Assembly (NCBI RefSeq): GCF_050920415.1 | Contig: NZ_CP169309.1 | DNA from: Escherichia coli | GTDB taxonomy: Bacteria; Pseudomonadota; Gammaproteobacteria; Enterobacterales; Enterobacteriaceae | Length of the DNA stretch: 64,000 bases | Direction: 5' to 3' (one strand) | Part shown: in pieces, positions 1 to 28,439 of the stretch | Layout: every line of letters begins with the position of its first letter | Numbering within the stretch: position 1 is the first letter of the stretch | The notes under the pieces: generated by a model | The model's database searches: none | Told to the model about the DNA's origin: nothing | The model's input: only the letters and a program-made list of their open reading frames with translations | Made by a program: the position numbers and the translations under genes

Positions 1-753
1 TAAACCGGCTTCCGTGGTGGTTTGGGGTTTATATTCACACCCAACCCAACCGTTGTAGTCAGAATTTTCAATTACCGTAAAGAGATACTCATAATTAATT
101 TCTCCGGTTCCCGGTTCGCCGCGATGCGGATTATCGGCAATTTGCAGGTGGCCAATTTTATCGGCCCATTGAGTCATAGTGTTGGTTAATTCACCTTCCA
201 TCCGCTGCATATGATAAATGTCATACTGAATTTTCAAATTGCAGCAACCAACATCATCAATCAATTTCAGCGCCTGTTGAGTTCCGGTGAGATAGAAACC
301 AGGAATATCAAAATGGTTAATAGGTTCAATCAGTAATAAAATATCTTCTTTCATCAGCATATTCGCGGCATAACGCAGGTTTTCTACAAGCGTTGCGTGA
401 ATCTGTTCACTGCTGAAACCAGCCGGCGTTTTACCGACCAGACAGTTGATTTTTTTATTACCCAGCGCACGAGCATAACGAATCGCTGCTGCTACGCCAT
501 CCCGAAACTCTTCTTCACGGCCAGGAATACAAGCAATACCGCGCTCCCCCGCCGCCCAGTCACCCGCCGGTAAATTGTGCAGAGTATGTTCGAGTTTATT
601 ACTCGCCAGCACCTGTTTTAATTCTTCAATGTCGTAGTCATAAGGAAACATAAATTCAACGCCGCGAAAACCACACTGCGCTGCTTTCTCAAAACGGGCG
701 AGAAAATCATATTCACCAAATAACATCGATAAATTCGCAGAGAAACGTAACAT
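1..753 (-). CDS. hyi: hydroxypyruvate isomerase, partial (3' end runs off the window start)
   Basis: Minus-strand translation from the ATG at 751-753 reads MLRFSANLSMLFGEYDFLARFEKAAQCGFRGVEF..., matching my recollection of E. coli Hyi; lies immediately downstream of gcl as in the gcl-hyi operon. Confidence 0.85.
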   Translation of the reverse strand, partial: MLRFSANLSMLFGEYDFLARFEKAAQCGFRGVEFMFPYDYDIEELKQVLASNKLEHTLHNLPAGDWAAGERGIACIPGREEEFRDGVAAAIRYARALGNKKINCLVGKTPAGFSSEQIHATLVENLRYAANMLMKEDILLLIEPINHFDIPGFYLTGTQQALKLIDDVGCCNLKIQYDIYHMQRMEGELTNTMTQWADKIGHLQIADNPHRGEPGTGEINYEYLFTVIENSDYNGWVGCEYKPQTTTEAGL

Positions 754-765
754 TATTTATCTCCC

Positions 766-2547
766 TTATTCATAGTGCATGAAGCAGGTTTCAGTCGGTG
801 CATCCACTGCGTTATCGGCGATATCTTCAAATTCCATGACATTATCCAGTTCGCTGCCCATCGAAATATTGGTCACACGTTCGAGAATAACTTCCACAAC
901 TACCGGAACACGGTATTGATTCATTAATGCTTTCGCCTGTTCAAATGCCGGAGCAATATCTTCCGGTTTGAAAACACGAATCGCTTTACAACCTAAACCT
1001 TCCGCTACTTTTACGTGGTCTACGCCGTAACCGTTCACTTCGCTGGAGTTAATATTTTCGAATGCGAGCTGTACGCAGTAATCCATATCAAAGGCGCGTT
1101 GCGACTGACGAATCAGACCCAGATAGGCGTTATTCACCAGCACATGGATGTACGGAATGTTGAACTGTGCGCCAACGGCTAATTCTTCAATCAGGAACTG
1201 GAAGTCGAAGTCACCGGAAATCGCCACCACATTGCGCTCTGGATCAGCGGCACACACGCCCAGCGCTGCCGGAATGGTCCAGCCCAACGGGCCTGCCTGC
1301 CCACAGTTGATCCAGTGGCGGTCTTTAAAGACATGCAGCATTTGTGCCGCAGCGATTTGTGACAGACCAATGGTGGTGACATAACAAACATCGCGACCAA
1401 AGGCTTTGTTCATCTCTTCATACACGCGCTGCGGTTTCACCGGCACATTGTCGAAGTGGGTTTTGCGCAGCAAAGTGCGTTTGCGCTGCTGGCAGTCGGC
1501 GACCCATTCTTTACGACACGGCAGACGACCCGCTTTTTGCATCTCCTGCGCCACTTCAACCAGTAAAGTCAGGGCAGCTTTAGCATCAGAGACAATCCCC
1601 AGATCCGGGCACAGCACGCGGCCAATTTGCGTCGGCTCAATATCGATATGGACGATTTTGCGCCCTTCGGTGTATTTCTCTACCGAACCGGTATGACGAT
1701 TGGCGAAACGGTTACCGATACCAAACACCAGGTCGGACGCCAGCAGCGTTGCGTTACCGTAACGATGCGCGGTTTGCAGACCCACCATCCCGGCCATCAG
1801 TTCATGATCGTCCGGGATACAGCCCCAGCCCATCAGCGTTGGGATCACCGGAACGCTGGTCAGTTCAGCAAACTGTTGTAACAGTGCAGCTGCGTCAGCA
1901 TTGATGACCCCGCCCCCAGCAACAATCACCGGACGTTCAGCCTGGATTAACATTTCGACCGCTTTTTCAATCTGCATACGGCTGGCAGCAGGTTTATAGA
2001 CCGGCAGCGGTTCGTACATGTCAGGATCAAACTCGATTTCCGCCACCTGAACGTCGAACGGTAAATCCACCAGTACCGGACCCGGACGACCAGAACGCAT
2101 CAGGTGAAATGCCTGTTGCAGCACGCGAGGCACCAGCGCCGCTTCACGAACTGTAACCGCCATTTTGCTGACCGGTTTAGCGATAGCTTCGATATCTACG
2201 GCCTGAAAATCTTCTTTATGCAGACGGGCGCGCGGTGCCTGGCCGGTAATGCACAGAATAGGAATGGAATCAGCAGAAGCAGAATAGAGCGCGGTGATCA
2301 TGTCCGTGCCCGCAGGACCGGAAGTCCCCAGACATACGCCGATATTCCCTGCCGTTGCGCGGGTATAACCTTCCGCCATGTGCGAAGCACCTTCCACATG
2401 ACGCGCCAGAATGTGACGAATACCGCCGTGCTTACGCATCGCTGAGTAGAACGGATTGATTGCAGCCCCCGGAACGCCGAAGGCGGTGGTAATACCTTCT
2501 TTCTCCAGCACATACATTGCCGCGTCAACGGCTCTCATTTTTGCCAT
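766..2547 (-). CDS. gcl: glyoxylate carboligase (tartronate-semialdehyde synthase), TPP-dependent
   Basis: ORF track 766..2637; protein from internal start [34 protein letters not shown] gives the 593-aa length I recall for Gcl; start trimmed to 2547. Confidence 0.92.
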
Positions 2548-2567
2548 TTTATTCCTACCTCTATTAA

Positions 2568-2584
2568 TTGGAAAAATTTTCCAA
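2568..2584. promoter_or_regulatory. putative AllR operator upstream of gcl (palindrome TTGGAAAAATTTTCCAA)
   Basis: Perfect 17-bp palindrome seen directly in sequence about 20 bp upstream of the gcl start; a near-identical palindrome is in the allS-allA intergenic region. Confidence 0.6.
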
Positions 2585-2598
2585 CTTTCAAATTTTGT

Positions 2599-2624
2599 CA
2601 AAAAAACCCGCTCCGCAGAGCGGG
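2599..2624 (-). terminator. intrinsic terminator downstream of allR
   Basis: GC stem CCCGCTC/GAGCGGG followed on the minus strand by a run of 7 T, just after the allR stop codon. Confidence 0.65.
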
Positions 2625-2636
2625 ATGCGACAGACA

Positions 2637-3452
2637 CTATGGATGTGCTTTCAGTCCCAACGCCGTGCTGATATCGCGGGCGGTGTCTCTGACCAGCTCA
2701 CCCTGACTGACAAAACGATCTTCTGTCAGTCTTGATGAAGGCCCGGAGATGGAGATAGCGGCAACAACGCTACCTACATCATCGTAAATTGCTGAAGCTA
2801 TGCAATTCAGACCTACAACATGCTCTTCTTTATCTACGGTATAGCCCAGTTCACGCGCTTGTTCCAGGTCCTTCAGCAAGGTGGGCATATCCACAAGCGT
2901 AGTTGGCGTAAACTGCTGCAAACCGGTTTGCAGAATGATGCTCATCAACTCCTCTTCCGCCAGCGGATAAAGCAGCGCTTTGCCCGCACCGGAAGCATGC
3001 AGCGGCAGACGACTGCCCAGCGGCGCACACATCCTGACCATCGATTTACACTCTAATTGACCAATTAATACTGCTTCATTGCCGTTACGAATCGCGACAT
3101 TGACCGTTTCGCCGGAAAGTAACATCAGGCGGCGCATAAATGGCCCAGCGACGGAGAGGACATCGCGGTTATGGATGTACGCCGCACCGACGTTAAAGAC
3201 ACCTAATCCTATATGCCACCAGCCTAACTGACTGTCCTGATAGACAAAATCCGCTGCCTGTAAAACCTTCAGCAAGCGAAAGGTCGTGGAGAGCGGCAAA
3301 TCCAGATTGAGAGAAATATCGCTAACCGACGAACTTCCCCCACTTTTTTCCAGATATTGCAGAATCGCAATTCCCCGCTCTAACGCCTGTGCGCCCTTTT
3401 GTGCCACAGGCTCCGCCTGTCCTGGCCTGCCGCGCCGTCTAACTTCCGTCAT
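2637..3452 (-). CDS. allR: IclR-family repressor of the allantoin regulon
   Basis: 271-aa ORF with N-terminal HTH and IclR-type effector domain; position between gcl and allA. Confidence 0.9.
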
Positions 3453-3529
3453 ACCTACGTTAACTCCGACCTACAAGTGAGCATAAACAATGAACAATTA
3501 GTTTATCTTATGCAAGTCGGTTGCAGGCG

Positions 3530-4012
3530 TCACGCAAAACAGAGTTCCTGTTCAGGAATACTTTCAACATCACAGTTGTCACTGCCGCCGCGATCGATGG
3601 TCAGAAAATCGGTGACGCGCTGCCAGGCGAAAAGTGGGTGATGCCAGACGTTACGATGGTAATTCACTCCCTGTTCACCGTTGGTAATAAACGCCCGCAG
3701 GGTTGACAGGTCTGGTTTGTCGTCACCTAACGCCACGACCACCACAAACACTTCCCCTTTCATCGGAATAAAGGCCTGAGTGCCCAGCGGATGACGTTCG
3801 AGTTCGTGAATGGTCAGCGGCAGATTCGCCGGTTGCGCGCGGTTAATGCTGATAAGCGTACGGTCTTGCTCAAGAATCTCAACCAGCGCCAAATCGTGGT
3901 AACGCTCCACCAGGCCATTGTTAATATGGAAAAAATCCCGTTGCTGCGTTTCGATTACGTCGCCATAAGCACTAAAGGCTTCCTGACTTAACGGTAATAC
4001 CTGAAGTTTCAT
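3530..4012 (-). CDS. allA: ureidoglycolate lyase
   Basis: 160-aa [24 protein letters not shown]...; conserved neighbourhood with allR and allS. Confidence 0.88.
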
Positions 4013-4116
4013 CTTTTTGTCCTTGTAACATAATTCCGTTCAACCACCGCCGACCGGTCAATGTGGTTCAATAACAGGCAATCTAAAACCTTAAGAGAAC
4101 AACATCAATACAAATG

Positions 4117-4133
4117 TTGGAATATTTTTCCAA
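4117..4133. promoter_or_regulatory. putative AllR operator in the divergent allA-allS intergenic region (TTGGAATATTTTTCCAA)
   Basis: 17-bp inverted repeat seen in sequence, near-identical to the site upstream of gcl. Confidence 0.6.
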
Positions 4134-4240
4134 AACTAGATTTAGTCCACAAATCACACAGGGTTATCATGTAAAAATACTGATAAATCAGAGGATAAGA
4201 AAATCACGCAACTTGCGGATTTAAAAGGGGATACCTGAAG

Positions 4241-5167
4241 ATGTTCGATCCAGAAACCTTGCGGACTTTCATTGCGGTTGCTGAAACAGGAAGTTTTTCA
4301 AAAGCGGCAGAACGATTATGTAAAACCACGGCGACGATCAGTTATCGCATTAAACTTCTGGAAGAGAATACCGGAGTGGCGCTGTTTTTCCGCACGACTC
4401 GCAGCGTGACGTTGACAGCGGCTGGCGAGCATCTACTTTCTCAGGCCAGAGACTGGCTGAGCTGGCTGGAAAGTATGCCCAGCGAGCTGCAACAGGTGAA
4501 TGATGGCGTGGAACGCCAGGTGAATATTGTCATCAACAACCTGCTCTACAACCCCCAGGCCGTCGCCCAGCTGCTGGCGTGGCTGAATGAACGTTACCCC
4601 TTTACCCAGTTTCACATCTCCCGACAAATCTATATGGGCGTCTGGGACTCGCTATTGTACGAAGGTTTTTCACTGGCTATCGGCGTCACGGGAACCGAGG
4701 CGCTGGCAAATACCTTTAGTCTTGATCCCTTAGGATCGGTGCAATGGCGCTTTGTCATGGCGGCGGATCATCCGCTGGCGAAAGTTGAAGAGCCGCTAAC
4801 AGAAGCGCAGTTGCGGCGCTTTCCGGCGGTTAATATTGAAGACAGCGCCCGCACCTTAACCAAGCGCGTCGCCTGGCGTTTGCCGGGGCAAAAAGAGATT
4901 ATTGTTCCCGATATGGAAACGAAAATCGCCGCCCATCTGGCGGGCGTTGGCATTGGTTTTTTGCCAAAATCACTTTGCCAGTCAATGATCGATAATCAAC
5001 AATTGATCTGCCGGGTAATCCCAACGATGCGCCCTCCTTCGCCATTGAGTCTGGCATGGCGCAAATTTGGCAGCGGCAAAGCGGTAGAAGATATTGTGGC
5101 CTTGTTTACCCAGCGCAGGCCGGAAATCAGCGGATTTTTAGAAATTTTCGGCAACCCACGCAGTTAA
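4241..5167 (+). CDS. allS: LysR-type transcriptional activator of allantoin catabolism
   Basis: 308-aa ORF with N-terminal LysR HTH ([20 protein letters not shown]) and LysR substrate-binding domain; divergent from allA. Confidence 0.88.
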
Positions 5168-5220
5168 AAATCAAGTTTCCTTGCGCGTTGGCGCGTAAAA
5201 TAGCGTGCAAGCTGATTTGA

Positions 5221-6330
<1,110 letters not shown>

Positions 6331-6364
6331 TGAGGGACACGGTGCCTGTTTCATAAAGATCATT

Positions 6365-6783
6365 TATACCCGTCATACTTCAAGTTGCATATGCGTTGGC
6401 AAGTTATTCAGGGATAGCCGGATGAGTGACATCACCATCCGGCTTAAGATTCCATACTATAATAATTCGAGTTGCAGGACAAAACGCCAGTGGCGTTTTG
6501 AACAACGCTTGCGTTGACCCTGAAAGGGTGAGGCCTAAGGCCGAGTAACGCGACAGGCGAGTGACAAATTCGTCGGGAACGAATTTGACCAGCCTCTGGC
6601 TGGCCTTCGGTGAAAGGCATCCTGCCTTTCAGTCATCCCCAGTCACTTACTGGGGTGAGCGACAAATCCGCATGGAGCGGATTTGAACGCTGCTTGCAGC
6701 GGTCCCGTAAGGGGTGAGGCCCATGGATGGGCCGAATAACTCGCAGACGCAGCACATGCAACTTGAAGTATGATGGGTATATA
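6365..6783. repeat. composite ERIC/IRU-like intergenic repeat with terminal inverted repeats and an embedded REP-like hairpin
   Basis: About 30-bp terminal inverted repeats (TACCCGTCATACTTCAAGTTGCATATGCG at 6365-6395, reverse complement at 6747-6783); internal ACTGGGGTGAGCG and GCAACTTGAAGTATGA match the ERIC consensus as I recall it; hairpin GCCGGATGAGTGACATCACCATCCGGC at 6418-6444. Confidence 0.5.
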
Positions 6784-6939
6784 CACAATGAACTTCAAGA
6801 CACTTGCTTCGGTATCTGGAAATTATCATTAATTCTGGATGCGACCAGCCTTGCTATATCTGGCAATGTTTCTTCAAAAACGTCGATATTGTATCCCAGA
6901 AATCTCACACACTGCTGAACCGGCATGTTCATTAATTAT

Positions 6940-7351
6940 TTATCCAGGCCATTTGCAATCAGTACCATCACTATTATATGCCTCAATATTTTCTTCAAAC
7001 TCAGTTATTTTTCCACTTTTCGATTTATAGTAAGAGCTATTAAATCTTGCACCCTGCGTAGCAACAACATACAATCCGTTGACTTTACATCCTATAACCT
7101 CACTCCATGTATATGTAAACTCTGAAGGTCTATCATCGAAAGTCACTTCCAATTTTTTCGTAAATGCAAGAGGTATGAAATTTGAGGATATTCCATAAAC
7201 CACATAACCTAAAACAACATCACCAGAAGATACTTCAACAAATTTTAAATTTATCTTCCCGAAACTAAAACAGCCAACCGTAGTTTGTTATTTAGCAAAT
7301 AAGAAAAAGGGCATCAAACAAAAAATTAAAACAAATAATTTAACTTTCATA
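6940..7351 (-). pseudogene. small secreted-protein gene interrupted by an in-frame TAA after the signal peptide
   Basis: ATG at 7351 encodes MKVKLFVLIFCLMPFFLFAK then TAA; the same frame continues open into ORF 6940..7203 (…VVYGISSNFIPLAF…). Confidence 0.35.
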
Positions 7352-7703
7352 TCATTTACTCCAATTCAGTTATTCGCCTCTGTACAAAAGCACACACAGA
7401 TTTTGAATTAATGGCGTACAAAAACATAATCGGATGAAAATACCACACCGGAATATTACTGATATAGCGGGATCTTACTCATTCGCTAGACTGAAAATGC
7501 AATTGAACAGAAATTTCTTACTAGTGTTTTTATCAGATGATCGGAAAGGAAATCAACTCACTGGCAAGTATCATAAGCTCAAATTGGCATATTGTATATT
7601 CCCATAAATACTTTTATTTTTTGATTAACATACTCAATACTACACATCACTAATTGAGAGAAGATTAACTTCATCATCTTTGATTAGGTACGTTTTTTAA
7701 TTT

Positions 7704-7922
7704 TCAATGACGCATCATAAAAAAGGGCTTACCAAGTTTAACACTAATAACAGGATATAAAGAAAACATATTGCTATATGAATCCTTTGGCGATGTTTTG
7801 GTTATGGTAATCTTTCCTTCTTTCAAGTGCTCTGCTATTATATGAAATTGAATCGGTCTTGTTGCATCACTTACCCGCAATGGATTACCAGCGTAAGCTT
7901 CATATCCTCCACCATTATTCAT
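7704..7922 (-). other. gene fragment in AT-rich debris (open frame extends upstream to 8020 without a start codon)
   Basis: ORF track plus manual frame extension; no start or RBS, low-complexity AT-rich context. Confidence 0.2.
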
Positions 7923-8268
7923 ATGTAAAATAGTGTATTCGTCATTTAAAAATGACTGCTTACTATCGTAGACTTGGTAGTATATATTACTTATATCAAG
8001 ATAAATTACTATAGAGATATACTTAATTTTTCATTTAGCATTAATGATGTATCCATGGAATCTATACATCTTTCAATATCAGTTATTTTTTCTTCTATAT
8101 ACGTAGCATAATTTTTTGGCACTGGCGTGTTTAGCCCTCATATACCCTCATTAACTAAGACACCATTTTGCTTGCTTTTTACATTGTAATAAAGACAATC
8201 AATATTGAATTTATTATTTTTATATTTCAGTGTTGTATATACAGTAAAATCATGCAGCGAACGCCCAT

Positions 8269-8544
8269 CTAAAACAATTGCGGGCGTGTCAGAAAAAAGT
8301 CAAATGAATAAGATGGATTATTTTCATAATCAGTCATAAATTTCATCTTTCTTATTTCATGATCAACGATCGCATAGATCTCATGATTAGATTCATCATA
8401 TCCATAAATGATTTCACCACCAGTACTGGCAGTAGCAGTAGCACTACTACAAATCAACATAATTACAAGTACATATCTAGTCAAGTTGAAAATCCTTAGG
8501 GGCAGATGATGTTTTTTCCAAGATGGATTGAAATTTTTCAACAT
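8269..8544 (-). CDS. hypothetical small protein with hydrophobic N-terminal segment, possibly a degraded or orphan immunity gene
   Basis: ORF track; segment YVLVIMLICSSATATAS resembles a signal peptide; AT-rich context. Confidence 0.25.
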   Translation of the reverse strand: MLKNFNPSWKKHHLPLRIFNLTRYVLVIMLICSSATATASTGGEIIYGYDESNHEIYAIVDHEIRKMKFMTDYENNPSYSFDFFLTRPQLF

Positions 8545-8854
8545 AAGAATCCATTAATTGCTTCTGATATTTTTCATTAATTATTTTTCGCGTATTATTA
8601 TATTAAATTTTATCACTGTTAATATATGTGGGGATTTTTACTCGTAAAAATCCCCGCCTCAATTCCCCAAATCATAATTGATACAGGACACAACTCTAGC
8701 AATGGTATCGTGAATAGTTTTCTTTAATAAGGCACGTCTCAATTCTTGAACATAAATTCGAATTATTTAGTAAAAAAACATCATCCCTGGGAGTATTACC
8801 TATTTTTGTATAATGCTATATTTATAGTAAACAATTCACAAGAAAATATTATTA

Positions 8855-9805
8855 CTAATATTTATATTCCTCCCACTGAGCACCGTATCGATGCTTTAAC
8901 AGTTTAACTTTAATTTCATCATATGTTTTAACTTTACTACCATCAATCTTAAGGCGAATTTTATTCGAGGTGATATCAACATAATTTCTATTTTCCCCAC
9001 CCGCAGGGAAAAAATCAAACATAAAATTAGACATGTTTTGTTCTTTTTTCATGAGAGCTCCATACTCACACATGTCATTTATATTTTGTATGTATGGAGT
9101 GCCCCCCTGACATGATGGATAATGAAAATCAATTATAGTAAAAAGCGATTTATTGACACTCCTCTGAAAGAACCACTTATTATTTACAATACGATAGGTT
9201 AAAGATTTAAATGTATACCAGTGACTTCCTGGAAGAAAAGAGTAAGCTTCATTAAGATTGACAGTAAATACCTTAGTTTCTCCAGAGGAAAGCTTTACCC
9301 ATTCTGATTTTATATCACAATTATCGCCCATACCAAAATAAAGCTCATCATTGGCATCATCCTCAACAAAATCACATATATTGGTTGCGGAAGGACGGAA
9401 TTTCAGATAGAAACCACTTGTGGATATTAAAAAAGAATCCTCACATAAAGGAGAAAAAAAATAAGGCTCCGATGTGTGTGAGGAGATAGGTAATAATCGT
9501 CTATGAATGAAATTTTCGCTACCCCCCAAATTTGTAAAACTTATTTTTGCTAACACACGAGAGTCAATTTGCTTAACGGTTAATCTAACATCAACATCAA
9601 ACATATTACGATTTGGCAATTTTTCCTCGACTCCGTCAGTGTAATGTGATAACTCAAGTATATTGTCCTCAAGAGTCATCGAATTTAATTTTTGTTCGGA
9701 AACATATTGTGCAATAACCTCATCATTGCAGTATCCATGAAATGAAATAAACATTAGCACTGCAATCTTAACTAATCTCAAAATACTTTTCAATATTGTA
9801 TGCAT
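8855..9805 (-). CDS. putative periplasmic immunity protein (paralogue of 11491..12312) for the HExxH effector
   Basis: N-terminal signal-like segment MHTILKSILRLVKIAVLMFISF; shares SFLPGSHWYTFKSLTYRIVNNKWF with [24 protein letters not shown] of the other immunity candidate; start chosen at the internal Met. Confidence 0.5.
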   Translation of the reverse strand: MHTILKSILRLVKIAVLMFISFHGYCNDEVIAQYVSEQKLNSMTLEDNILELSHYTDGVEEKLPNRNMFDVDVRLTVKQIDSRVLAKISFTNLGGSENFIHRRLLPISSHTSEPYFFSPLCEDSFLISTSGFYLKFRPSATNICDFVEDDANDELYFGMGDNCDIKSEWVKLSSGETKVFTVNLNEAYSFLPGSHWYTFKSLTYRIVNNKWFFQRSVNKSLFTIIDFHYPSCQGGTPYIQNINDMCEYGALMKKEQNMSNFMFDFFPAGGENRNYVDITSNKIRLKIDGSKVKTYDEIKVKLLKHRYGAQWEEYKY

Positions 9806-10567
9806 TATTAAAAACCAGCGGGTCATGTTTTGATTTTAATTCTTTTGCATTGGCAATTTCTCTTTTTTTTCCCAAATCGTTACTGCTTAATCCACCATAA
9901 TACTGTTCTCCATCCCAGATAATAAAAAGGTGAGATAACTCATGGCATAATGTGGAGACTCGAGAGTTTTCTCCCGTTGGATTTTTACATGTGAAATTTT
10001 GTAAGATATCTATAGATATTCTTTCTCGATACTCTAACTTTAAAAGTTCAGCCTTCGACTTATTTTTATACTCACTACTTTGGTATTGGGGCCGATTTAG
10101 ATCTATATGAGTCGTCTGAGCAGCCGGTATACGGGCTGAACCATTGACTAAATTGGTATAATTTTTAAAATTGCCATATATTAGTTGTACATTATCTTGC
10201 GTTCGAGTTTCAATGATCAAGCTATCACAAATCATGATCATTCTGTAAACCCCCTCTTTTATAAAAGTATGTGCGTCAATATTCTTGGTTTGTGGAGTGA
10301 AGTTCCCATTATTATCTGACTTTTGACAAGGAGCATAGTGTTCCATTGTTATAATAGCATCACCTGGTAATCCAAATATATCTTCAAAATTTTTCTGATC
10401 TGCTGGTGTCCATGCTTCCAGATTTTTGCTCTGATATTCAATACTCGCTTTGTTTCTTCCAAAGCAGGCGTTATCATGTTGTAAAATTGATCAGTAACCT
10501 TTGCTTCTTTTTTACATATATTGCCTTTTTGAGTTACCCCTTGTGAACTTCCTTTGTTATTATTCAT
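9768..10567 (-). pseudogene. frameshifted paralogue of the vgrG-linked HExxH effector
   Basis: N-terminal part in ORF 10349..10582 (KEAKVTDQFYNMI versus KEQKITDHFKIMI in the intact copy), remainder in a different frame 9768..10346 carrying STLCHELSH and NNAYNIEKYFEI; frames differ at about 10346-10351. Confidence 0.5.
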
Positions 10568-10975
10568 AAACACCTCCCTCAATCATATCTATACTTTGAT
10601 GCAATAGCCTGACTTTTATCGTCAGCTCACTGTCAGTGATAAATATTTCCGTATACCCATCCTTATCCGTTTCCCCTCGCGCTTGTGTGCCGTCCTCAAA
10701 AAAGGCAATGTAGCGTGTTTCTGAATACGGTATCCCGTCATCGTCTGTAAAATGAAACTGGAGGGTGTATTTCTCAGGTTCATCCTTATCTTCATTGTCG
10801 TTCCCAGAATCATTTCCATCGCCACCACCGACCCCGCCATTGCCTTGCCCGCCCTCTGCACCACCATCTTTATCACTACCTTCATCCGTCAGTGCCTCCA
10901 GCACGCCCGGTTGCAGTGTCGGTACCGGAGTCCCCGGACTACCCCCACCATTCAGATTTATCTTCGGCCCCCAGG
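10560..10975 (-). pseudogene. vgrG 3' fragment (C-terminal about 135 codons of a second vgrG allele)
   Basis: Nucleotide-level similarity to the 3' end of the intact vgrG (for example CCGTCCTCAAAAAAGGCAATGTAGCG..TTTCTGAATACGGTATCCCGTCATCGTCTGTAAAATG), breaking off at about 10975 where the H-repeat fragment begins; encodes DEPEKYTLQFHFTDDDGIPYSETRYIAFFEDGTQ. Confidence 0.6.
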
Positions 10976-11340
10976 GAAAGATTACGAAAGCCCGCTCCCC
11001 GCAAGGACTGACGCCAGATACTTTCTGTCCATGGCTGCTTTTCGCATCTTACGTCTTAACCCTGCCTTGAATACCTTATCATTCGTCAAAATATTAATAG
11101 CGATGTGCCGTATCCCTGAAAATAATTCTGCTGCATTTCCTCTTCTTATTTTGCAGTCGTCTTCATTCATTACCACGTCCAGACGCCAGTGCAGCTTATT
11201 CTCCACGTGCCCGTGGTTTCGGATTGCTGTGGCGAACTTCTCTGCGGTTAAATCAGCAGAACTGATATAATATCTGACCGTCATTTCTGGCTCTTTCTTT
11301 TGTTCTGCTATTATGGACCGAAAGGAGACTGCCACGCATA
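10976..11340 (-). mobile_element. H-repeat (ISAs1-family transposase) 3' fragment
   Basis: ORF 10982..11335 encodes ...[71 protein letters not shown]..., which I recognise as the C-terminal third of the Rhs-associated H-repeat protein; no intact transposase. Confidence 0.6.
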
Positions 11341-11490
11341 ATTTCTTCAGCCCTTTCCATTCAAACGTGAAATCAATAAGTTCATCAGGGACATCGCAAA
11401 CAATATGAAGACGGATTTCTTCTCTGCCGTGACTAAAATGCGAATTATTTAGTACAAAAAAAGCGGCGCACCTTGTTCTTTCCCAGATTC

Positions 11491-12312
11491 CTAATATGGC
11501 AACTTTAAGTTATCGCCGTCTATACTTATAGAAATTTCATCAGGGGTGACGTAAATAGAATTTTTTTCATCCTCAATTGCCCATAACTGATTAATAAAAA
11601 AGTGTTTTTTTTCATCTAATAACAAATTATCACATGTAGTAAAATTATTAATATCAAAAAGATCATCAGCACAATTAATTTTTAAATTTAAAAAATAAAG
11701 AAAAATATTATTGATTGATTTGAGTGTAAACCACTTGTCATTAACAAATTTATAGCCAGATGATTTTATAAAATAATAATTATCTCCTGGTATAAAGGCA
11801 TACATATCATTTAAGGTTATACTCAACAAAAAACTACGACCTGGTTTAATAGTATTCCACCGTTCAGGATTCGTATTAATTTCAAAAGGACATGAACCAC
11901 CTAAGTAGTCCAACGTGATATTCCCAGAGTTGATTCTGAATGGTTTTTTGCATATTGCATCATATTCATCTCCTTTTCCATCTTTTACTTTCATAGGTAG
12001 ATAATATTTAGAAAAAAAATACGTGGTAGAGCTTTTGTTAGTAAAGGTTATGTTAGCAAAAATCCTGTTATTTTTTTTACTCATAGCTAATTGAGCATTG
12101 ACATCCGCTATATAATTTATATGATTACATTTTTTCTTACACTCATCATAATTTTCGATAGGATAAATTAATGGCCTTCCTTTGATATCTCTCTCAAGCC
12201 CAAACCCGTATTTTTTTATTAAAACCATTTCATCTGCAGTCGATTGAAAGGAATAGAAAAATATAATATTTACGATTGTCATTATTATGATTTTTTTTAT
12301 AGCTTGCAGCAT
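11491..12312 (-). CDS. putative periplasmic immunity protein for the adjacent HExxH effector
   Basis: 273-aa ORF directly downstream of the effector; signal-peptide-like N-terminus [26 protein letters not shown]; paralogous to 8855..9805. Confidence 0.5.
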
Positions 12313-12335
12313 TAATATATTTCTCGACTTATTAG

Positions 12336-13127
12336 TTAATGGAGAAGTGCTTTTTCTAATTCCGCTATTTTTTTCTTAACTAAATTGCTTAATATTTCAT
12401 CATTAATCGAGTCTATCTCACTTTCAATTAATCTTATTTCAAAATATCTTTCTATGTTATATGCATTCTCAAATATTTGATCTTTTTGTTTAGAGATCAG
12501 TTTAGTTGCAATACGGATATGTTCGTCATATGAAACTTCATCCTCTTTGCACGTTGAATATTTATCAGTAGTTGTATAATCCTGTGACCACATACCACCT
12601 TTTTTATTATCCCTATAATACCACTGAATATGAGACATTTCATGACATAAAGTAGCAACATGAGAATCCTTTCCCGTTACTGGATTTTTTTTGCCATCTC
12701 TATACTCAAATTTTGCGCCTATGTTAATTATATAGGGCATATCCTTACTTGGGCTGACGAATGCTGCAAATTCATTACAACCTGTATAATTTATAAAACT
12801 GCTCATTGTTAAATCATTAGCTATAATCATTAATCTTCTCACACCATCCATCATAAGAAATCTAGCATTCATGCGCCTGCCTGTATTATGTCCATATTTT
12901 CTTATATTAACTTCCTTATTTCCTTTAACACCAAAGATCTTACTGAAATCATATTCCTCCTGTGCTCCCCATCTCAAAAGATCATCTGCTCTTTTTATCA
13001 AAACCAACTTTTGTGCCTTACGAGCCTTATCAATCATTATTTTAAAATGATCAGTTATTTTTTGCTCTTTCACACATTCTTCTGGCTCTGGCTTTGGTTG
13101 TCCAGAAGTTTGATTATTATCGTCCAT
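12336..13127 (-). CDS. putative T6SS effector, zincin-like metallopeptidase (HExxH motif), vgrG-linked
   Basis: HEMSH in ATLCHEMSHIQWY; no signal peptide; probable start MDDNNQ at 13127 overlaps the vgrG stop by 11 bp; conserved C-terminal ENAYNIERYFEI shared with the paralogue. Confidence 0.55.
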   Translation of the reverse strand: MDDNNQTSGQPKPEPEECVKEQKITDHFKIMIDKARKAQKLVLIKRADDLLRWGAQEEYDFSKIFGVKGNKEVNIRKYGHNTGRRMNARFLMMDGVRRLMIIANDLTMSSFINYTGCNEFAAFVSPSKDMPYIINIGAKFEYRDGKKNPVTGKDSHVATLCHEMSHIQWYYRDNKKGGMWSQDYTTTDKYSTCKEDEVSYDEHIRIATKLISKQKDQIFENAYNIERYFEIRLIESEIDSINDEILSNLVKKKIAELEKALLH

Positions 13128-15522
13128 AGTGTCCTTCCATTGAGAGAAAATCATCATTCGCAAATAGCAACTTCACTTTAATTTCATGTTTGCTAGATAC
13201 AAAAAAACGCTCTGTATACCCCTCTTCATCCGTTTCTCCGCGGGTCTGCGTGCCATCCTCAAAGAAGGCAATGTAGCGGGTTTCTGAATACGGTATCCCG
13301 TCATCGTCTGTAAAATGGAACTGGAGAGTATATTTTTCAGGTTCATCCTCATCGTCACCTCGATCATCACCACCACTTCCGGTCACGCAGTTCCCTCCAG
13401 AGTTTTCATTTTCTTCTCCGGAATCACTGCCATCACCACTCTTCTCATCCCCCAGTGTCTTCAGCACCGCCGGTTGCAGCGTCGGTACAGGCGTCCCCGG
13501 ACTGCCTCCCCCGTTCAGATTTATCTTCGGCCCCACTATATCCACGCCCCCTGAATGGATGACCACAAACGAGCCACCCAACTTCAGGCTTATCCGGCTG
13601 CTGCTCTCCAGCACGATATCCCCGTCCACCTTTATCCCCAGCGCACCACTCACCTTCCTCGCCAGGTCGCCTTTCACCTCCAGGCTGTGTTTTCCCTCCA
13701 CCAGGCTGATGTGGTTTCCTGTCGTTTTGTGCTCCTGCTTCCCTTCCACCGTCACCTTTCGGTCGTTTCTGACGTACAGACCGTCATCGTGGCTGACGTT
13801 CACCCGCCGGTCGTTCGTCACCTTCAGCGTCTGGTCGTTGCGCACCGTGATGCTCCGGTCATGGGCCACCGTGATACTCTGGTCGTGGCCCCCTTCTTTT
13901 CTGGTGCCGACCTCAACCGTCTGCCCCTTCACCACCCTTATCTTCTGGTCGTTACCGATGGTCTCCGTATGGTCATGCTTCACGTCCGTCGTCCGGTCGT
14001 TAAGCACCTCCGTGTCCATGTTCTTCTGCGCGTGGATATACACCTGCTCACTGTCCGTCGCATCCTCGAAACGCAGTTCATTAAAGCCGCTTCCTTTATA
14101 GGTCTTCGAGCGGATGGTCATCTGCGTCCGCGTGCCCGGTAAATCCCCCGGTGAACGGTTATCTTCATGGTAGGTCCGCCCCGTCACAATGGGCTGGTCC
14201 GGGTCTCCGTTCAGAAAGTCCACTATCACTTCCTGACCCACACGCGGTATCGCCAGATTGCCGAACCCCGGTCCCGCCCATGCCTGCGACACCCGTATCC
14301 AGCATGAACTCTCCTCCGTCATCCCGTGATAACGGTCCCAGTGAAACTTCACCCGTACCCGGCCATGCTCGTCGCAGAATATCTCCTCGCCCTTCGGCCC
14401 GGTCACGATGGCACTCTGCGGGCCGTCCACCTTCGGCTTCGGCAGCGGCGCGTGACGCCACGTCCTGTCTGCCGGTATCACCTCAAACTGGTTACTCAGC
14501 GTCGTCCCTTCACCGTGACTGCCGTGCAGCGCCTGCGGCTGTTCTCCCCGCAGTGTGCTTCCCACAACCTGCCATTCCCGGTTCAGCGTATCCGACGGGT
14601 GACCCGACAGGGTAAACCGCGTTCCCGGCCACAGCCGCGCCGTGTTACACACCCCGCTCGCCGTCTCCGCCCCGTTCCGCCACCCTTCCGTCTGGTAACG
14701 CGCAAAATCCTGGCCATGCTGCTCATCCTTGAAACGCCCCGGATAATCAAATATCTCGTACTGCGTTCCCTGCCCGTTCAGGCTCTCCCCGTCATGGCTG
14801 TAGTACCCCGGCCACCCCGGCACTTTAAACGTATAATCCTGCGTCTCCACCGACGCCACGCTTATCTGCGCACGGTAACGAAACTCACTGATGTACTCCG
14901 TCGTTCCCCCGGTCGTCGTGTTCGGGTTAAACGCCAGCGCCCCCATTCCCGTCAGCCCCGCCACGTCATCACACACCGCCAGCTTCTGTTCCGGCCCGTC
15001 CTGACTGCAGCGTTCATAAAAGAAGATACCTTCCTCCGCCCACAGCCGGGTCAGGAACGCCAGGTCGCTCTCCCCGTACTGCACGCAGAACTCCCGCGCC
15101 GGATGGTCTTCATAAAACAGCGGCATCCACGCCGTCACCCCGTTCTCTCTCAGAAGCTGTGCTGATATCGTCCCGATGTCCTGCTGCTGGAAGATACGGA
15201 AGTTCTGCCGTAACCCTGCCCGCCACAGCGGCGGGCTGATGCTCAGGGAATAACGCATCTGCCAGTCGTTGTTCTCACCGAGCTGCACCTCCGTCACGAT
15301 ACCGCTGACGTAACGCTGTGCAGTGTCGCCCTGCCAGACCGTCAGCACCGCGCTTTTCTCCAGAAAATCCTCCGCCGTCAGGTCGGACAGCCCGCTGGCG
15401 ATATCCACATCCAGGATGAACGGTGTGCAGTGGTGCTGGTACAGACGGAAGCTCACCACCGCCGTCGCCATCTCCACGATGTCGTCCACCGACAGCGTGA
15501 AACGTAATCCTTCTGAGGACAT
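13117..15522 (-). CDS. vgrG: T6SS spike protein VgrG with C-terminal extension (Gly/Asp/Glu-rich linker plus TTR-like adaptor domain)
   Basis: gp27/gp5-like core (LRFTLSVDD..., octapeptide beta-helix repeats KIRVVKGQTVEVGTRKEGGHDQSITVAHDRSITVRND...); likely start MSSEGLRFTL at 15522 (ORF track begins at 15555). Confidence 0.85.
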   Translation of the reverse strand: MSSEGLRFTLSVDDIVEMATAVVSFRLYQHHCTPFILDVDIASGLSDLTAEDFLEKSAVLTVWQGDTAQRYVSGIVTEVQLGENNDWQMRYSLSISPPLWRAGLRQNFRIFQQQDIGTISAQLLRENGVTAWMPLFYEDHPAREFCVQYGESDLAFLTRLWAEEGIFFYERCSQDGPEQKLAVCDDVAGLTGMGALAFNPNTTTGGTTEYISEFRYRAQISVASVETQDYTFKVPGWPGYYSHDGESLNGQGTQYEIFDYPGRFKDEQHGQDFARYQTEGWRNGAETASGVCNTARLWPGTRFTLSGHPSDTLNREWQVVGSTLRGEQPQALHGSHGEGTTLSNQFEVIPADRTWRHAPLPKPKVDGPQSAIVTGPKGEEIFCDEHGRVRVKFHWDRYHGMTEESSCWIRVSQAWAGPGFGNLAIPRVGQEVIVDFLNGDPDQPIVTGRTYHEDNRSPGDLPGTRTQMTIRSKTYKGSGFNELRFEDATDSEQVYIHAQKNMDTEVLNDRTTDVKHDHTETIGNDQKIRVVKGQTVEVGTRKEGGHDQSITVAHDRSITVRNDQTLKVTNDRRVNVSHDDGLYVRNDRKVTVEGKQEHKTTGNHISLVEGKHSLEVKGDLARKVSGALGIKVDGDIVLESSSRISLKLGGSFVVIHSGGVDIVGPKINLNGGGSPGTPVPTLQPAVLKTLGDEKSGDGSDSGEENENSGGNCVTGSGGDDRGDDEDEPEKYTLQFHFTDDDGIPYSETRYIAFFEDGTQTRGETDEEGYTERFFVSSKHEIKVKLLFANDDFLSMEGHYGR

Positions 15523-15805
15523 ATAAACCCCATAGCTACCGCACTCATGGTGCAAACCCTACAGAATTATAAGAAAGACTTAAGTGAGATATCCGTCAGA
15601 TAGCAACTATTAGGAAAATATTTATATACATTTCATGAATACATTCATTAATACCGAGATGTTTTTGTCTATATAAACAGAGCAAGCTAACGTCCTCACT
15701 CCATGAAAGAAACTACGTAGGGGCCTTTCGGTCCATAACAACTTTTTCCCTGTTATATCCTGACGTTCTGGTCTACTGGTGTAGTCATGCATATTGCAAC
15801 GTTCT

Positions 15806-15915
15806 ACCCATGGAAAGATAAATAAAGCCAGCTCTCCGCAAGGACTGAAGCGAGGTGCTTTCTGTCCATAGCTGCTTTTCGCAACTTACTCCTTAACCCA
15901 ACACTGAATTTCTTA
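15806..15915 (-). mobile_element. short H-repeat (ISAs1-family) 3'-end remnant, direct repeat of 10976-11065
   Basis: About 110 bp about 85% identical to the 3' end of the H-repeat fragment at 10976..11340 (..CCGCAAGGACTGA..CTTTCTGTCCAT.GCTGCTTTTCGCA..); encodes ..[25 protein letters not shown]. Confidence 0.45.
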
Positions 15916-16055
15916 TGATTTGTCACAGTATGAACTTTTAATTTCATACATTGCTCTTTAGTCAATAGAAGAAAAATAAGCACCCTCTCCCAAACGACAC
16001 AAATAACCTGCAAATGGGAAATGACTTATTACTTAGAAATTTGCAGAGATATAAA

Positions 16056-16337
16056 TCACGAGATATATCCACCTTTTGAGTTAACAGTTACAGACGTTAT
16101 AACATTATCTTTTATCCAGATATCAACAAAAAAGTCCTTACCACAATAAAGACATTCACAATATCCTTCAGAGATAAAGTTGTCCTTAAGTTTATTTCTG
16201 GTTATATTAATAAGTTTATCGCCAGGATTGTAATGTACTAAATTTCCAGATGGCACAAACATCTCAATTTCACACTGTCCTGACGTTCCACATCGAGGGC
16301 AAACGCACCATGCTTTCAATAAATCATAATTCGACAT
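16056..16337 (-). CDS. hypothetical Cys-rich zinc-ribbon-like small protein
   Basis: 93-aa ORF with two Cys clusters (CVCPRCG and CECLYCG); located between ybbP and vgrG. Confidence 0.35.
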   Translation of the reverse strand: MSNYDLLKAWCVCPRCGTSGQCEIEMFVPSGNLVHYNPGDKLINITRNKLKDNFISEGYCECLYCGKDFFVDIWIKDNVITSVTVNSKGGYIS

Positions 16338-16387
16338 TATATTACCTTAATTTATTTCACATCAGCATCCCCCCTTGCAAACCACAA

Positions 16388-16744
16388 CTAAACTATTCCC
16401 ATAAAATACAACGAGATAATTTTACTGTTAAACGTACATTCACAAAACTCAGGGGAAGAAAAATGACCATCAGTCAAAAATAAAGATAGTTTGCTTAGTG
16501 CGTAATCAATTGAATCAAGCGACAAGTATAATTTTATTACTAGTGAGTTCTGTATCAGGACATCATTTTCATTGGGGGATTGTAAAAGTAATAAATTTTT
16601 ATACGCTACAGGTGATCTGTTTTCCAGTCTAATAGGTTTGCTTGCTTCCGTCTCCAATAAACTATAAAGAGCACAAACCATCTCATGAGCATCATCTTTC
16701 TCAAAATGTAAATGAAACCCGCCCAGAGATTTATTAGCAATCAT
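16388..16744 (-). CDS. hypothetical protein
   Basis: 118-aa ORF from the ORF track in the AT-rich island flank; no recognisable motif. Confidence 0.3.
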   Translation of the reverse strand: MIANKSLGGFHLHFEKDDAHEMVCALYSLLETEASKPIRLENRSPVAYKNLLLLQSPNENDVLIQNSLVIKLYLSLDSIDYALSKLSLFLTDGHFSSPEFCECTFNSKIISLYFMGIV

Positions 16745-16841
16745 AATACGTTTCTAAAGTTGATTTGAAATTTTGCATTTCATGCTCATCAAAAAAATAA
16801 ATATATTTTAACTACAAAGCAAACATCACAGCGCATAGCGG

Positions 16842-17057
16842 TTAATATTCTACCTTAACGACTTTCATTCCTCTTTCAATCATACCATTAATTAATTGAT
16901 AATACTCTTTATCCCCTACATCTACTATTAGAATATGTCCGGTAAGTTCATTGATGAATAAATACTCAGGTTCCTCATCTGTACCAGCATTTGAAATAAC
17001 CCAACCTGGATCAGTACCATCTATAAAAAACTCCCACTCTTTAAAATTAACACTCAT
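16842..17057 (-). CDS. hypothetical small acidic protein (possible orphan immunity protein)
   Basis: 71-aa ORF, compact acidic protein, AT-rich context next to a polymorphic-toxin island. Confidence 0.3.
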   Translation of the reverse strand: MSVNFKEWEFFIDGTDPGWVISNAGTDEEPEYLFINELTGHILIVDVGDKEYYQLINGMIERGMKVVKVEY

Positions 17058-17179
17058 TTAATCCTCCTTTTTATACTCGCAAGAAAAGGAGAGTATCGTT
17101 TCTAACTCTGAAATAAAAGTATGATAAAAGACAGGACCTGGCCTCATTGAATGTTATTTCTCAATTCTTGATAGTTTTT

Positions 17180-17280
17180 GCCGGATGCGGCTTGAACGCT
17201 TATCTGGCCTACACAATCTTGCAAAATCAATATATTGCACGCTCTTCGTAGACCAGATAAGCGTAGCGCATCAGGCAATC
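17180..17280. repeat. REP/BIME-type palindromic units downstream of ybbP
   Basis: GCCGGATGCGGCTTGAACGCTTATCTGGCCTAC and CAGATAAGCGTAGCGCATCAGGC are REP consensus-like hairpins. Confidence 0.55.
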
Positions 17281-17292
17281 TAACACCTGTCA

Positions 17293-22727: not shown

Positions 22728-22878
22728 TTTGTAGGCCTGATAAGACGCGCCAGCGTCGCATCAGGCATCCGCGCATAGCCGCCGGATGCGGCGTGAACGC
22801 CTTATCCGGCCTACCAAACCGTGCTAATTCAATACATTGCAGGTGCCATGTAGGTCTGATAAGACGCATCAGGCATCG
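22728..22878. repeat. BIME cluster of three REP units between cnoX and fetB
   Basis: GTAGGCCTGATAAGACGCGCCAGCGTCGCATCAGGC, GCCGGATGCGGCGTGAACGCCTTATCCGGCCTAC, GTAGGTCTGATAAGACGCATCAGGCATCGC. Confidence 0.6.
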
Positions 22879-25387: not shown

Positions 25388-25842
25388 TGGAGTTAATGGT
25401 CGTTCATCCACATATTTTCTGGCTCAGTCTCGGCGGGTTGTTGCTGGCAGCCGAGATGTTGGGCGGAAATGGTTATCTGTTGTGGAGCGGCGTGGCAGCG
25501 GTGATTACCGGCCTGGTGGTCTGGCTGGTGCCGCTGGGTTGGGAGTGGCAAGGGGTGATGTTTGCCGTCCTGACGCTGCTCGCCGCCTGGTTGTGGTGGA
25601 AATGGCTGGCACGAGGCGTGCGCGAACAAAAGCACAGTGACAGTCATTTAAACCAGCGCGGGCAGCAGCTTATTGGCCGACGTTTTGTGCTGGAATCTCC
25701 GCTGGTCAACGGGCGCGGTCATATGCGCGTCGGTGACAGTTCATGGCCTGTCAGCGCCAGCGAGGATCTCGGCGCAGGTACGCATGTTGAGGTGATTGCG
25801 ATAGAAGGGATAACGCTGATTATCCGTGCGGTCATCGCCTGA
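25384..25842 (+). CDS. ybbJ: NfeD-like inner membrane protein, partner of QmcA
   Basis: 152-aa ORF overlapping the qmcA stop by 4 bp; TM segments plus C-terminal OB-like domain. Confidence 0.85.
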
Positions 25843-25844
25843 CG

Positions 25845-25915
25845 CGTCTTATCACACCCGGAAATCTGTACTAAAAATCATGCCGGATAAGGCGTTTACG
25901 CCGCATCCGGCATAT
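25845..25915. repeat. REP palindromic units downstream of ybbJ
   Basis: ATGCCGGATAAGGCGTTTACGCCGCATCCGGCAT matches the REP consensus. Confidence 0.55.
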
Positions 25916-25933
25916 AGCCGAGTAGTGGCAAAA

Positions 25934-26296
25934 TTACTCTTCCCGGCCTTTCCCCATACTTTTTTGGTCTTCATCCGGATAGTGTTTTTTTAGATATTCC
26001 AGGACGTTTTTATTGACCTTGTGTTGCGTATACACCCACCCTTTCCAGTAATCAGGCTGGTCCAGATAAACTTCTGGCGGAATGGTGAAATCAGAAAGCG
26101 TTAACCATTCGGCTAACAGATCGGGGTTTCGCTTCTGGATCAACTGCAACAGCATGATCAGCGACATGGCAGAGGCAGGAGCCGTACTATCGCCACTTAA
26201 ATATTTCCACACCGTTGATCGGTTCGAACGAAAAAGGATGGGAAGCAGCGCCCGGTCCAGATTCATTTCATTAAAAATCTTCTCAAATTCATTCAT
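25934..26296 (-). CDS. hypothetical protein (strain-specific insertion between ybbJ and cueR)
   Basis: 120-aa ORF; not part of the K-12 ybbJ-cueR junction as I recall it; function unknown. Confidence 0.4.
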   Translation of the reverse strand: MNEFEKIFNEMNLDRALLPILFRSNRSTVWKYLSGDSTAPASAMSLIMLLQLIQKRNPDLLAEWLTLSDFTIPPEVYLDQPDYWKGWVYTQHKVNKNVLEYLKKHYPDEDQKSMGKGREE

Positions 26297-27678: not shown

Positions 27679-27731
27679 TTTTAACAGCAATTTCTTATTC
27701 GCAATTTTCCGTACATTATTTAAGGTTAACA

Positions 27732-28357: not shown

Positions 28358-28439
28358 GAGCACCGCTTCCATTTATAGAGCAATAGTCACCAGCGTAATT
28401 TTCTGGCACAGTTCAGGGAACTGAAATTTTGGCTAAGGA

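Follow-up and report, generated by a model that had tools for sequence, protein, structure and literature searches.

ERIC sequences, which are also named IRU or RU-1, are non-coding, hairpin-forming, MITE-like repeats of enterobacteria and have been described since 1990-91. Insertions of about 70 bp at specific internal ERIC sites were reportedly described by Sharp in 1997 ('Insertions within ERIC sequences') and by Cromie et al. in 1997, and ERIC insertions are said to have been analysed again by Wilson and Sharp in 2006. Palindrome-induced deletions in ERIC are likewise said to have been treated by Sharp and Leach in 1996. To our knowledge, the origin of the long ERICs is not settled, no partner transposase is known for ERIC, and no function is known for RF02902 (AaHKsRNA22), an Rfam family that is compared with the locus below. 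The mechanism of ERIC mobilisation is given as unresolved in reviews including PMC2759123, and RF02902 is a transcript family that was first found by RNA-seq in Aggregatibacter actinomycetemcomitans HK1651 (PMC5909427).

Here, positions 6365-6783 of an Escherichia coli sequence were analysed; the whole stretch of 64,000 nucleotides is referred to as the window. It is very probable that 6365-6783 consists of two ERIC copies, a complete long form and a truncated inverted fragment, which were probably imported together with an accessory island and are in all likelihood selfish or neutral. The element next to selU is another copy of the already-described long ERIC type, present in a rare haplotype. 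The TATAC...GTATA arms, the order of the backbone, the intergenic position, the presence in multiple copies and the long imperfect hairpin are shared with the canonical 127-bp ERIC, to which the window copy is identical at 99 of the 113 aligned backbone positions. Unlike the canonical form, it has a length of 330 bp instead of 127 bp with three inserts, its core palindrome is 13 bp shorter, with most of the ERIC1R site gone and the ERIC2 site truncated, and its left terminus reads CCATAC instead of TATAC. Self-folding inserts of about 70 bp at fixed internal positions are common to the described long ERICs and the window copy, whereas the occupation of all three sites, the core deletion and the inverted partial neighbour distinguish the latter. 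The loss of sequence from the central palindrome resembles the palindrome-induced ERIC deletions. With other MITEs (Correia/NEMIS, RUP, YPAL) the element shares small size, lack of coding capacity, terminal inverted repeats and TA ends, and for ERIC a presence/absence polymorphism with TA duplication is seen at the long rpiA copy; modular internal inserts, in contrast, are not a general MITE feature.

The genes of the window follow the E. coli order hyi-gcl-allR-allA-allS-selU. The conserved gene upstream of the element is selU (mnmH; CDS 5236-6330, plus strand, stop codon TAA at 6328-6330), as given by the ORF list and by the RefSeq annotation of the identical locus of strain MFDS1022581. When the window was compared with K-12 490-538 kb by blastn, homology was found for 1-6338 and again from 17290 onward; the gap opens eight bases beyond the selU stop and closes at the end of ybbP. 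The segment in between (6339-17289, about 11 kb, no strand assigned), delimited by blastn and characterised by Pfam searches of its ORFs, is absent from K-12, where rhsD-ylbG is found in its place. The first-pass annotation had placed the element at the selU-proximal island edge, and this position is borne out by the two break points. The ERIC composite is the first feature of the accessory segment from the selU side, 26 bp inside the break point, and lies between the convergent selU and island ORFs. Farther inside, the segment encodes a VgrG spike protein of a T6SS (13117-15555, minus strand; Pfam Phage_GPD 1e-75, with Gp5 and OB domains), two pairs of an HExxH effector-like ORF and a partner ORF, a C-terminal vgrG fragment and a transposase (IS) fragment, and it is AT-rich, with a G+C content of about 30% along much of the sequence. 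An arm-motif search yielded no further ERIC arms elsewhere in the 64-kb window, so the island is not bracketed by ERICs.

Of 5426 complete E. coli genomes, only 3 contain the right flank (6784-7700), and the full-length element was found in the same three, strains MFDS1022581, N96 and RMDEC465. The arrangement is repeated, at 99.8-100% identity, in all six further metagenome/Logan contigs with the neighbouring ORF. Among the three flank-bearing genomes and the six additional contigs, neither an empty site for the selU locus nor a donor was found. Since the composite is situated on the island side of the K-12 break point and is confined to genomes with the island, it was assigned to the imported vgrG segment and not to the core genome. 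It most likely arrived with this segment from a lineage rich in long ERICs, as the comparison of loci suggests.

In the first-pass annotation, 6365-6783 was regarded as one element of about 420 bp, bracketed by terminal inverted repeats, with an ERIC-like core and internal insertion. The terminal inverted repeats exist: 6365-6394 and 6752-6781 are 93% complementary over 30 nt with 357 nt between them, and a second inverted pair (6392-6409 and 6734-6751, 83%) prolongs the outer arms to about 48 nt. The core motifs named there were confirmed as well. The motif GCAACTTGAAGTATGA occurs exactly once per strand, at 6758-6773 (plus) and 6373-6388 (minus), with a third, degenerate match at 6460-6475; allowing up to 3 mismatches, 3 matches were obtained in 64 kb versus 0.42 expected. 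ACTGGGGTGAGCG is found exactly at 6649-6661. A single ERIC with termini at 6365 and 6783 that was enlarged internally would agree with the fact that the outer arms are the best inverted repeat of the region and are paired in the minimum-energy folds of both RNA and DNA. However, this reading is extremely improbable, because a complete canonical left arm is located within the stretch at 6454-6480, with an exact copy of the ERIC left-arm motif AATAATTCGAGTTGCAGGA at 6461-6479, and the sequence is colinear with long ERICs thereafter. Furthermore, the outer left arm is of the right-end type GTCATACTTCAAGTTGCAT.TGC and not of the type TAAATAATTCGAGTTGCAGG, and it matches RU-1 positions 1-36 in inverted orientation, while for 6413-6453 neither significant ERIC similarity nor relatives beyond the three island-bearing genomes were found among the E. 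coli genomes and other enterobacterial loci searched. The outer arms consequently do not bracket one element of about 420 bp, and the unit with the full left arm starts at 6454.

The complete long-form ERIC covers 6454-6783 (about 330 bp) in plus orientation and has its own left arm. A four-way alignment was made of the window copy, the canonical 127-bp ybhJ/ybhI copy and two long relatives from a similarity search, namely a 343-bp copy by ybhM in strain RM9088 and a 276-bp copy by rpiA in E2348/69, and 6454-6783 was colinear with all three other ERICs. Against the canonical copy, the 127 backbone positions comprise 99 matches, 14 mismatches and 14 gaps. For an independent reference, the RU-1 (ERIC) sequence of E. 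coli was taken from Delihas 2007 (PMC2759123); its entire length could be aligned to the long copy (99 matches, 9 mismatches). The ERIC identity that had been proposed is thus established by alignment with both the canonical 127-bp ERIC and the published RU-1, and backbone similarity and order, terminal inverted repeats, multiple copies and an intergenic position were all found for the element.

All parts of the long copy are on the plus strand. Its left arm (6454-6477) was delimited by alignment with the three ERICs and by the exact AATAATTCGAGTTGCAGGA match; the left terminus is degraded (CCATAC versus TATAC). The inner arms of the long copy, 6459-6476 and 6757-6774, pair at 83%. At site 1, after TTGCAGGA, insert M1 (6478-6549) forms four hairpins and corresponds to a 68-bp block that is missing from the canonical copy, and it is followed by the backbone GCGACAGGCGAGTG between sites 1 and 2 (6550-6563). 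Insert M2 at site 2 after GAGTGA (6564-6633; three hairpins) corresponds to a second missing block of 70 bp (57+13) and is common to the RM9088 and E2348/69 copies. The central core (6634-6660) carries a 13-bp deletion, in which CCCCAGTCACTTACTGGGG replaces CCCCAGGAGCTTACATAAGTAAGTGACTGGGG in the four-way alignment. Insert M3 at site 3 after GAGCGA (6661-6740), again with four hairpins, corresponds to a third missing block of 78 bp, and the right arm (...GCAACTTGAAGTATGATGGGTATA) with the terminal TA completes the unit at 6741-6783.

All three insert blocks are present at the same columns in the RM9088 ERIC, and the rpiA ERIC of E2348/69 has the second and third blocks only, at the same sites as the window copy. 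Over the whole long unit, window and RM9088 copies show 302 matches, 27 mismatches and 15 gaps (88.6% identity). The comparison with other long ERICs, along the lines of a suggested check, yielded homologous inserts at the same sites in both relatives: inserts of about 70 bp occupy fixed internal positions and are homologous between loci. The proposal of an ERIC enlarged by internal insertion holds insofar as the long form does result from inserts; the size of about 420 bp has to be replaced by about 330 bp, composed with three inserts and a 13-bp core deletion. Among complete E. coli genomes, all three insert sites were seen to be filled only at the selU locus (3 genomes) and at ybhM (5 genomes).

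Short AC repeats within the core hairpin flank the 13 deleted bases, and the remaining sequence still forms a perfect, shorter hairpin (CCCCAGT-CACTT-ACTGGGG). This core-deletion variant was found solely in the three island-bearing genomes. Of the ERIC2 primer site, the 3' 13 nt (ACTGGGGTGAGCG) alone are intact, and CATCCCCAG is all that is left of the ERIC1R site; because most of the primer core is gone, ERIC-PCR cannot prime normally from the window copy. The copy search proposed in the first-pass annotation was likewise positive. For a 44-nt core assembled from the two ERIC-PCR primers, E. coli genomes contain a median of 10 places each with 100% identity, the right arm of the element matches other loci at 95% in 5425 of 5426 E. 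coli genomes, and 7 matching places are present in the genome of strain MFDS1022581.

To the left of the long copy, a truncated second ERIC copy, i.e. an inverted right-end arm, is located at 6365-6412 on the minus strand, as seen from the RU-1 match and from the inverted-repeat pairs with 6734-6781. Positions 6365-6400 match RU-1 positions 1-36 at 32 of 36 positions with a score of 52, compared with a mean of 14.4 and a maximum of 22 for shuffled sequences, and the orientation is opposite to that of the long copy, as for an inverted ERIC right end. The similarity extends farther, to about 6412, and takes in AAGTTATTC, which is complementary to the terminal GAATAAC of a site-3 insert; because of this site-3 remnant, the fragment was traced to an insert-bearing ERIC. 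Elsewhere in E. coli, relatives of the left part were found only for 6362-6400. The left-end type of ERIC, TAAATAATTCGAGTTGCAGG, differs from the outer left arm with its right-end type GTCATACTTCAAGTTGCAT.TGC, and we know of no single ERIC in which the right-end sequence type stands at the left. With a left-end arm TAAATAATTCGAGTTGCAGG inside and an inverted right end outside, the 420 bp are therefore read as two head-to-head copies, one of them truncated.

Fragment and long copy are separated by a 41-bp spacer (6413-6453, no strand assigned) with a hairpin at 6417-6443, GCCGGATG-11 nt-CATCCGGC, which has a REP-like outer stem and a fold of -19.8 kcal/mol. Within the E. coli collection, 6413-6453 occurs solely in the three island-bearing genomes, and a search of other enterobacterial loci, about 1 Mb in total, gave no relatives. 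As ERIC in either orientation, as long ERIC or as module the spacer was rejected, since 37 of 500 shuffled sequences scored at least as high as its best match. A REP identity of 6417-6443 was also rejected. The REP consensus applied was GCC(G/T)GATG...(C/T)ATC(C/A)GGC with a conserved inner stem and multiple copies; only the outer 8-bp stem fits, and the inner part is unlike the true REP at 22781-22810. There was no match to Rfam naRNA4 at 6417-6443 and no other E. coli copy outside the three genomes.

A pair of inverted copies could also have formed by nested insertion, in which the long ERIC jumped into an older inverted ERIC and split the host copy. ERICs target TA dinucleotides and the ends are TA-rich, and abutting or inverted ERIC pairs are seen elsewhere, for example in Intestinirhabdus alba. 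However, the other half of the host copy would then be expected to the right of 6783, where 6779-6900 reached a score of 16 against a shuffle mean of 14.5. A third ERIC end at 6781-6799, hinted at by the palindrome 6762-6799, was rejected because its similarity is at shuffle level. As no ERIC end lies to the right of 6781, simple nested insertion is disfavoured and is considered very unlikely; two head-to-head copies, one truncated, remain the preferred architecture.

The spread of long ERICs was assessed at two other loci. At rpiA, the uninterrupted K-12 sequence GCATTA-TA-TACAAAAAAAGCG (GCATTA-TA-TACAAA) represents an empty site, and in E2348/69 the whole two-insert ERIC is situated at this site with TA on both sides. 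From this comparison of K-12 and E2348/69, which concerns the rpiA locus and not selU, it follows that long ERICs are gained or lost as whole units. At the selU copy, a TA target duplication is not legible because the left end reads CCATAC and not TATAC. In K-12, ybhM and ybhN are direct neighbours; in RM9088 they are separated by strain-specific DNA with a DUF3969 gene and IS1, and the three-insert ERIC also borders on this DNA. The inserts would accordingly be inherited traits of a long-form subfamily, and probably were not acquired at the selU locus.

Inserts M1 and M3 share the design GACAAA-stem-UUUGAAC-stem-stem-GAG-stem-GA(A/G)UAAC with four consecutive hairpins. M2 has only the first hairpin and the overall style in common with them, a distant relation, and forms a direct repeat with the start of M3. 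At gathering thresholds, Rfam gave no match in the element region. In a permissive Rfam scan, RF02902 was matched end to end by M1 (36.3 bits, E 2.6e-5) and M3 (25.5 bits, E 0.0075), both below the gathering score of 39.8. A site-1 insert from an ERIC of I. alba reached 44.4 bits and thereby exceeded this score, and a copy from Aggregatibacter kilianii reached 63.2 bits. The likeness of M1 and M3 to RF02902 extends over the whole 101-position model and comprises the four hairpins and the linkers ACAAA..., UUUGAAC, GAG and CGA, whereas the window copies remain sub-threshold and the Aggregatibacter unit is not located within an ERIC.

Further modules were collected by a survey with the pattern of the first M1 hairpin in one genome per bacterial species, which is a pattern-biased sample. 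At least 126 distinct matches were obtained; among the matches listed, 106 directly follow an ERIC left arm and several further ones follow diverged ERIC arms. The module family is thus common among the ERICs of other Enterobacterales. More than 80 of the matches listed belong to I. alba, and other hosts listed are Leminorella, Serratia, Salmonella enterica subsp. arizonae/diarizonae, Dickeya, Enterobacter, Erwinia and Escherichia whittamii. The I. alba sample contains ERICs with 0, 1, 2 or all 3 inserts according to an approximate classification. Outside ERIC, modules were found in Aggregatibacter, in a contig labelled P. stutzeri NCTC11607, in a gammaproteobacterial MAG, in Gilvimarinus and Zhongshania (partly in tandem and near tRNA genes), and in a second repeat family of I. 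alba and Citrobacter koseri. A literature search on Haemophilus 'intergenic dyad sequences' as a relative of the module gave nothing usable.

For 30 diverse module copies, 93.9% of the cells of the four-hairpin structure are paired and 16 of 25 pairs are changed on both sides. This number of double-change pairs was equalled by 0 of 500 shuffles, and slid controls gave at most 8; helix 1 was set by the search pattern and is uninformative, so that the covariation signal is carried by helices 2-4. With a covariance model (R1) constructed from these copies, M1 scored 86.9 bits and M3 68.8 bits, both copies being seed sequences of the model. The model did not match M2, detected nothing beyond M1 and M3 in the window and nothing in 48 kb of K-12, and found 168 copies in 632 kb of I. 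alba, where M2-type units were weakly matched (25.7 bits). On the forward strand, G.U outnumbers A.C (170 versus 51 cells, or 84 versus 48 without one fixed G.U pair); counted by column, the difference is just 14 versus 6, and the copies share ancestry. The G.U excess in these alignments is suggestive of a constraint on the modules at the RNA or single-strand level.

We regard it as possible rather than probable that the inserts of about 70 bp are an independent, RF02902-related four-hairpin module under structural constraint, which colonises ERIC at GA^A sites. Such a module could also exist outside ERIC in Pasteurellaceae, in marine Gammaproteobacteria of the Cellvibrionales type and in the second repeat family of Intestinirhabdus and Citrobacter koseri. 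If so, the module would itself be a small mobile or functional RNA/DNA unit, with ERIC as one of its carriers, and a family that reaches beyond ERIC and Enterobacterales would help to explain how long ERICs arise.

The predicted structure of the region is very strong. For 6331-6800, RNA folds of -219.2 kcal/mol (z -12.8) on the plus strand and -214.4 kcal/mol (z -11.7) on the minus strand and a plus-strand DNA fold of -126.7 kcal/mol (z -14.1) were calculated; because both strands are about equal as RNA, folding energy is no guide to a functional strand. The long copy alone (6455-6783, 329 nt) folds as RNA with -145.6 kcal/mol (z -8.5), with its own arms paired and the modules folded locally. 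When the left fragment is included, the right arm switches to the inverted fragment in a stem that closes about 415 nt. A scan of the region revealed no promoter- or terminator-like sites framing the element and no terminator-like site between the selU stop and the element. In the absence of a consensus terminator before the element, selU transcripts probably read into it, and the convergent island transcripts probably enter it as well. As RNA, each module would fold into its own local hairpins, while the right arm would have two possible partners: the left arm of the same copy, or the inverted fragment, with which the pairing is more extensive and encloses about 415 nt. The likeliest effect may be an altered stability or processing of the 3'-ends of selU mRNA and of the convergent island transcripts. 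For Yersinia ERICs, an orientation-dependent change in the stability of co-transcribed upstream mRNA through exposure of an RNase E site has been reported according to reviews (PMC2229807, PMC3184786).

Alternatively, the element might be a functional small RNA or a cis-regulatory element of the selU 3'-UTR instead of a selfish repeat. Besides the strong predicted structure, the sub-threshold matches to Rfam sRNAs (RF02902 with 36.3 bits, isrH with 20.6 bits), the covariation in the module hairpins and the forward-strand excess of G.U over A.C agree with such a role. Nevertheless, this alternative is judged highly unlikely: the Rfam scores stay under the gathering thresholds, the G.U excess is weak by column among copies that are not independent, no promoter- or terminator-like site surrounds the element, and the same sequences recur in many unrelated intergenic contexts. 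Moreover, 5423 of 5426 E. coli genomes lack the element, so selU does not need it and a selected function at the locus is unlikely. The composite is most probably selfish or neutral repeat DNA.

For the selU locus itself, the composite is of little importance, being one more well-known selfish repeat at the edge of a rare vgrG island. Only the module family, with its reach beyond ERIC and its likeness to an Rfam 'sRNA' family, might repay more work. Annotation pipelines could take folded pieces of such elements for sRNAs, as the near-threshold Rfam matches illustrate. Beside selU, hairpins could form and rearrangements occur at the 48-nt inverted pair, the arms of which are 320 bp apart. Short-read assemblies break within the element, and 3 of the 6 public contigs end inside it at position 6744.

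The K-12 rhsD-ylbG region was replaced in the window by an 11-kb accessory segment (6339-17289), which carries a vgrG gene on the minus strand (13117-15555), fragments of the C-terminal part of vgrG (10560-10904) and of a DDE transposase (10982-11335), and two ORF pairs that are paralogous to each other and each consist of an HExxH effector-like ORF and its partner (12336-13163 with 11491-12312, and 9768-10346 with 8855-9826). Among 5426 complete E. coli genomes, the full-length ERIC element at selU was found in only 3, and the flanking stretch 6784-7700 was likewise found in only 3. Of six public contigs assembled from short reads, three (Logan L009, L011 and L013) stop at window position 6744, which falls inside the ERIC right arm; short-read assemblies are broken by the ERIC repeat at this position. 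Elsewhere in the window, the stretches 25841-29664, 30173-55959 and 60978-61337 are without counterpart in the 490-538 kb region of K-12, the longest of them (30173-55959) comprising about 26 kb.

The other three-insert ERIC found in E. coli, that of strain RM9088 (L004 2500-2843), is likewise located at the edge of strain-specific DNA, here a stretch between ybhM and ybhN that holds a DUF3969 gene, an IS1 and a hypothetical gene; the ybhM-ybhN gap in K-12 is 35 bp. A clean presence/absence polymorphism was observed for the 276-bp two-insert ERIC between rpiA and yqfE, which is present in E2348/69 (L005 2478-2755) and absent from K-12 (L134 1290-1420). The empty site in K-12 reads GCATTA-TA-TACAAA, and the TA is duplicated on both sides of the ERIC in E2348/69.

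Insert-bearing ERICs were massively expanded in Intestinirhabdus alba BIT-B35 (L043-L120), in whose sampled loci more than 80 ERIC copies bear the site 1 insert M1 among the matches listed. The covariance model of the hairpin module gave 168 matches in 632 kb of I. alba sequence. By approximate classification, the ERICs in these loci contain 0 to 3 inserts, with every combination present, and some arms have been converted to the opposite arm type (e.g. in L099). Moreover, the module was identified inside a different, non-ERIC repeat framed by ...CACTTGCCATTTTGGACCTGGGCAGTGCTCGC, both in I. alba (L057 683, L097 3700, L106 2399, L107 89 and L113 10360) and in Citrobacter koseri (L122). Module-like units also exist outside both Enterobacterales and ERIC, namely in Gilvimarinus (L031 9096 and L032 1470), Zhongshania (L121), a gammaproteobacterial MAG (L026) and Aggregatibacter kilianii (L020). 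The units outside Enterobacterales are in part arranged in tandem and located downstream of tRNA genes at a distance of no more than about 130 nt, and a possible 7-bp direct repeat, TAACCGC, is found on both sides of the A. kilianii unit. An Aggregatibacter-type module is also present on the 1.93-Mb contig CABDVE010000001.1 (L030), labelled Pseudomonas stutzeri NCTC11607, a species label that is doubtful because of the size and content of the contig.

ERIC sequence appears to be contained in the Rfam 'sRNA' families RF02818 and isrH. The canonical ERIC between ybhJ and ybhI (L003 1459-1582) aligned over the whole model of RF02818 (V_AS5, a Vibrio antisense RNA) with 46 bits, the gathering score being 96, and positions 165-212 of isrH were matched by the ERIC ends at window 6369-6413 and 6732-6775. 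Above-threshold Rfam matches in the window were obtained for the REP-derived element naRNA4 (22734-22811), within which a canonical REP is located (22781-22810), and for sroB/ChiX (62203-62286).
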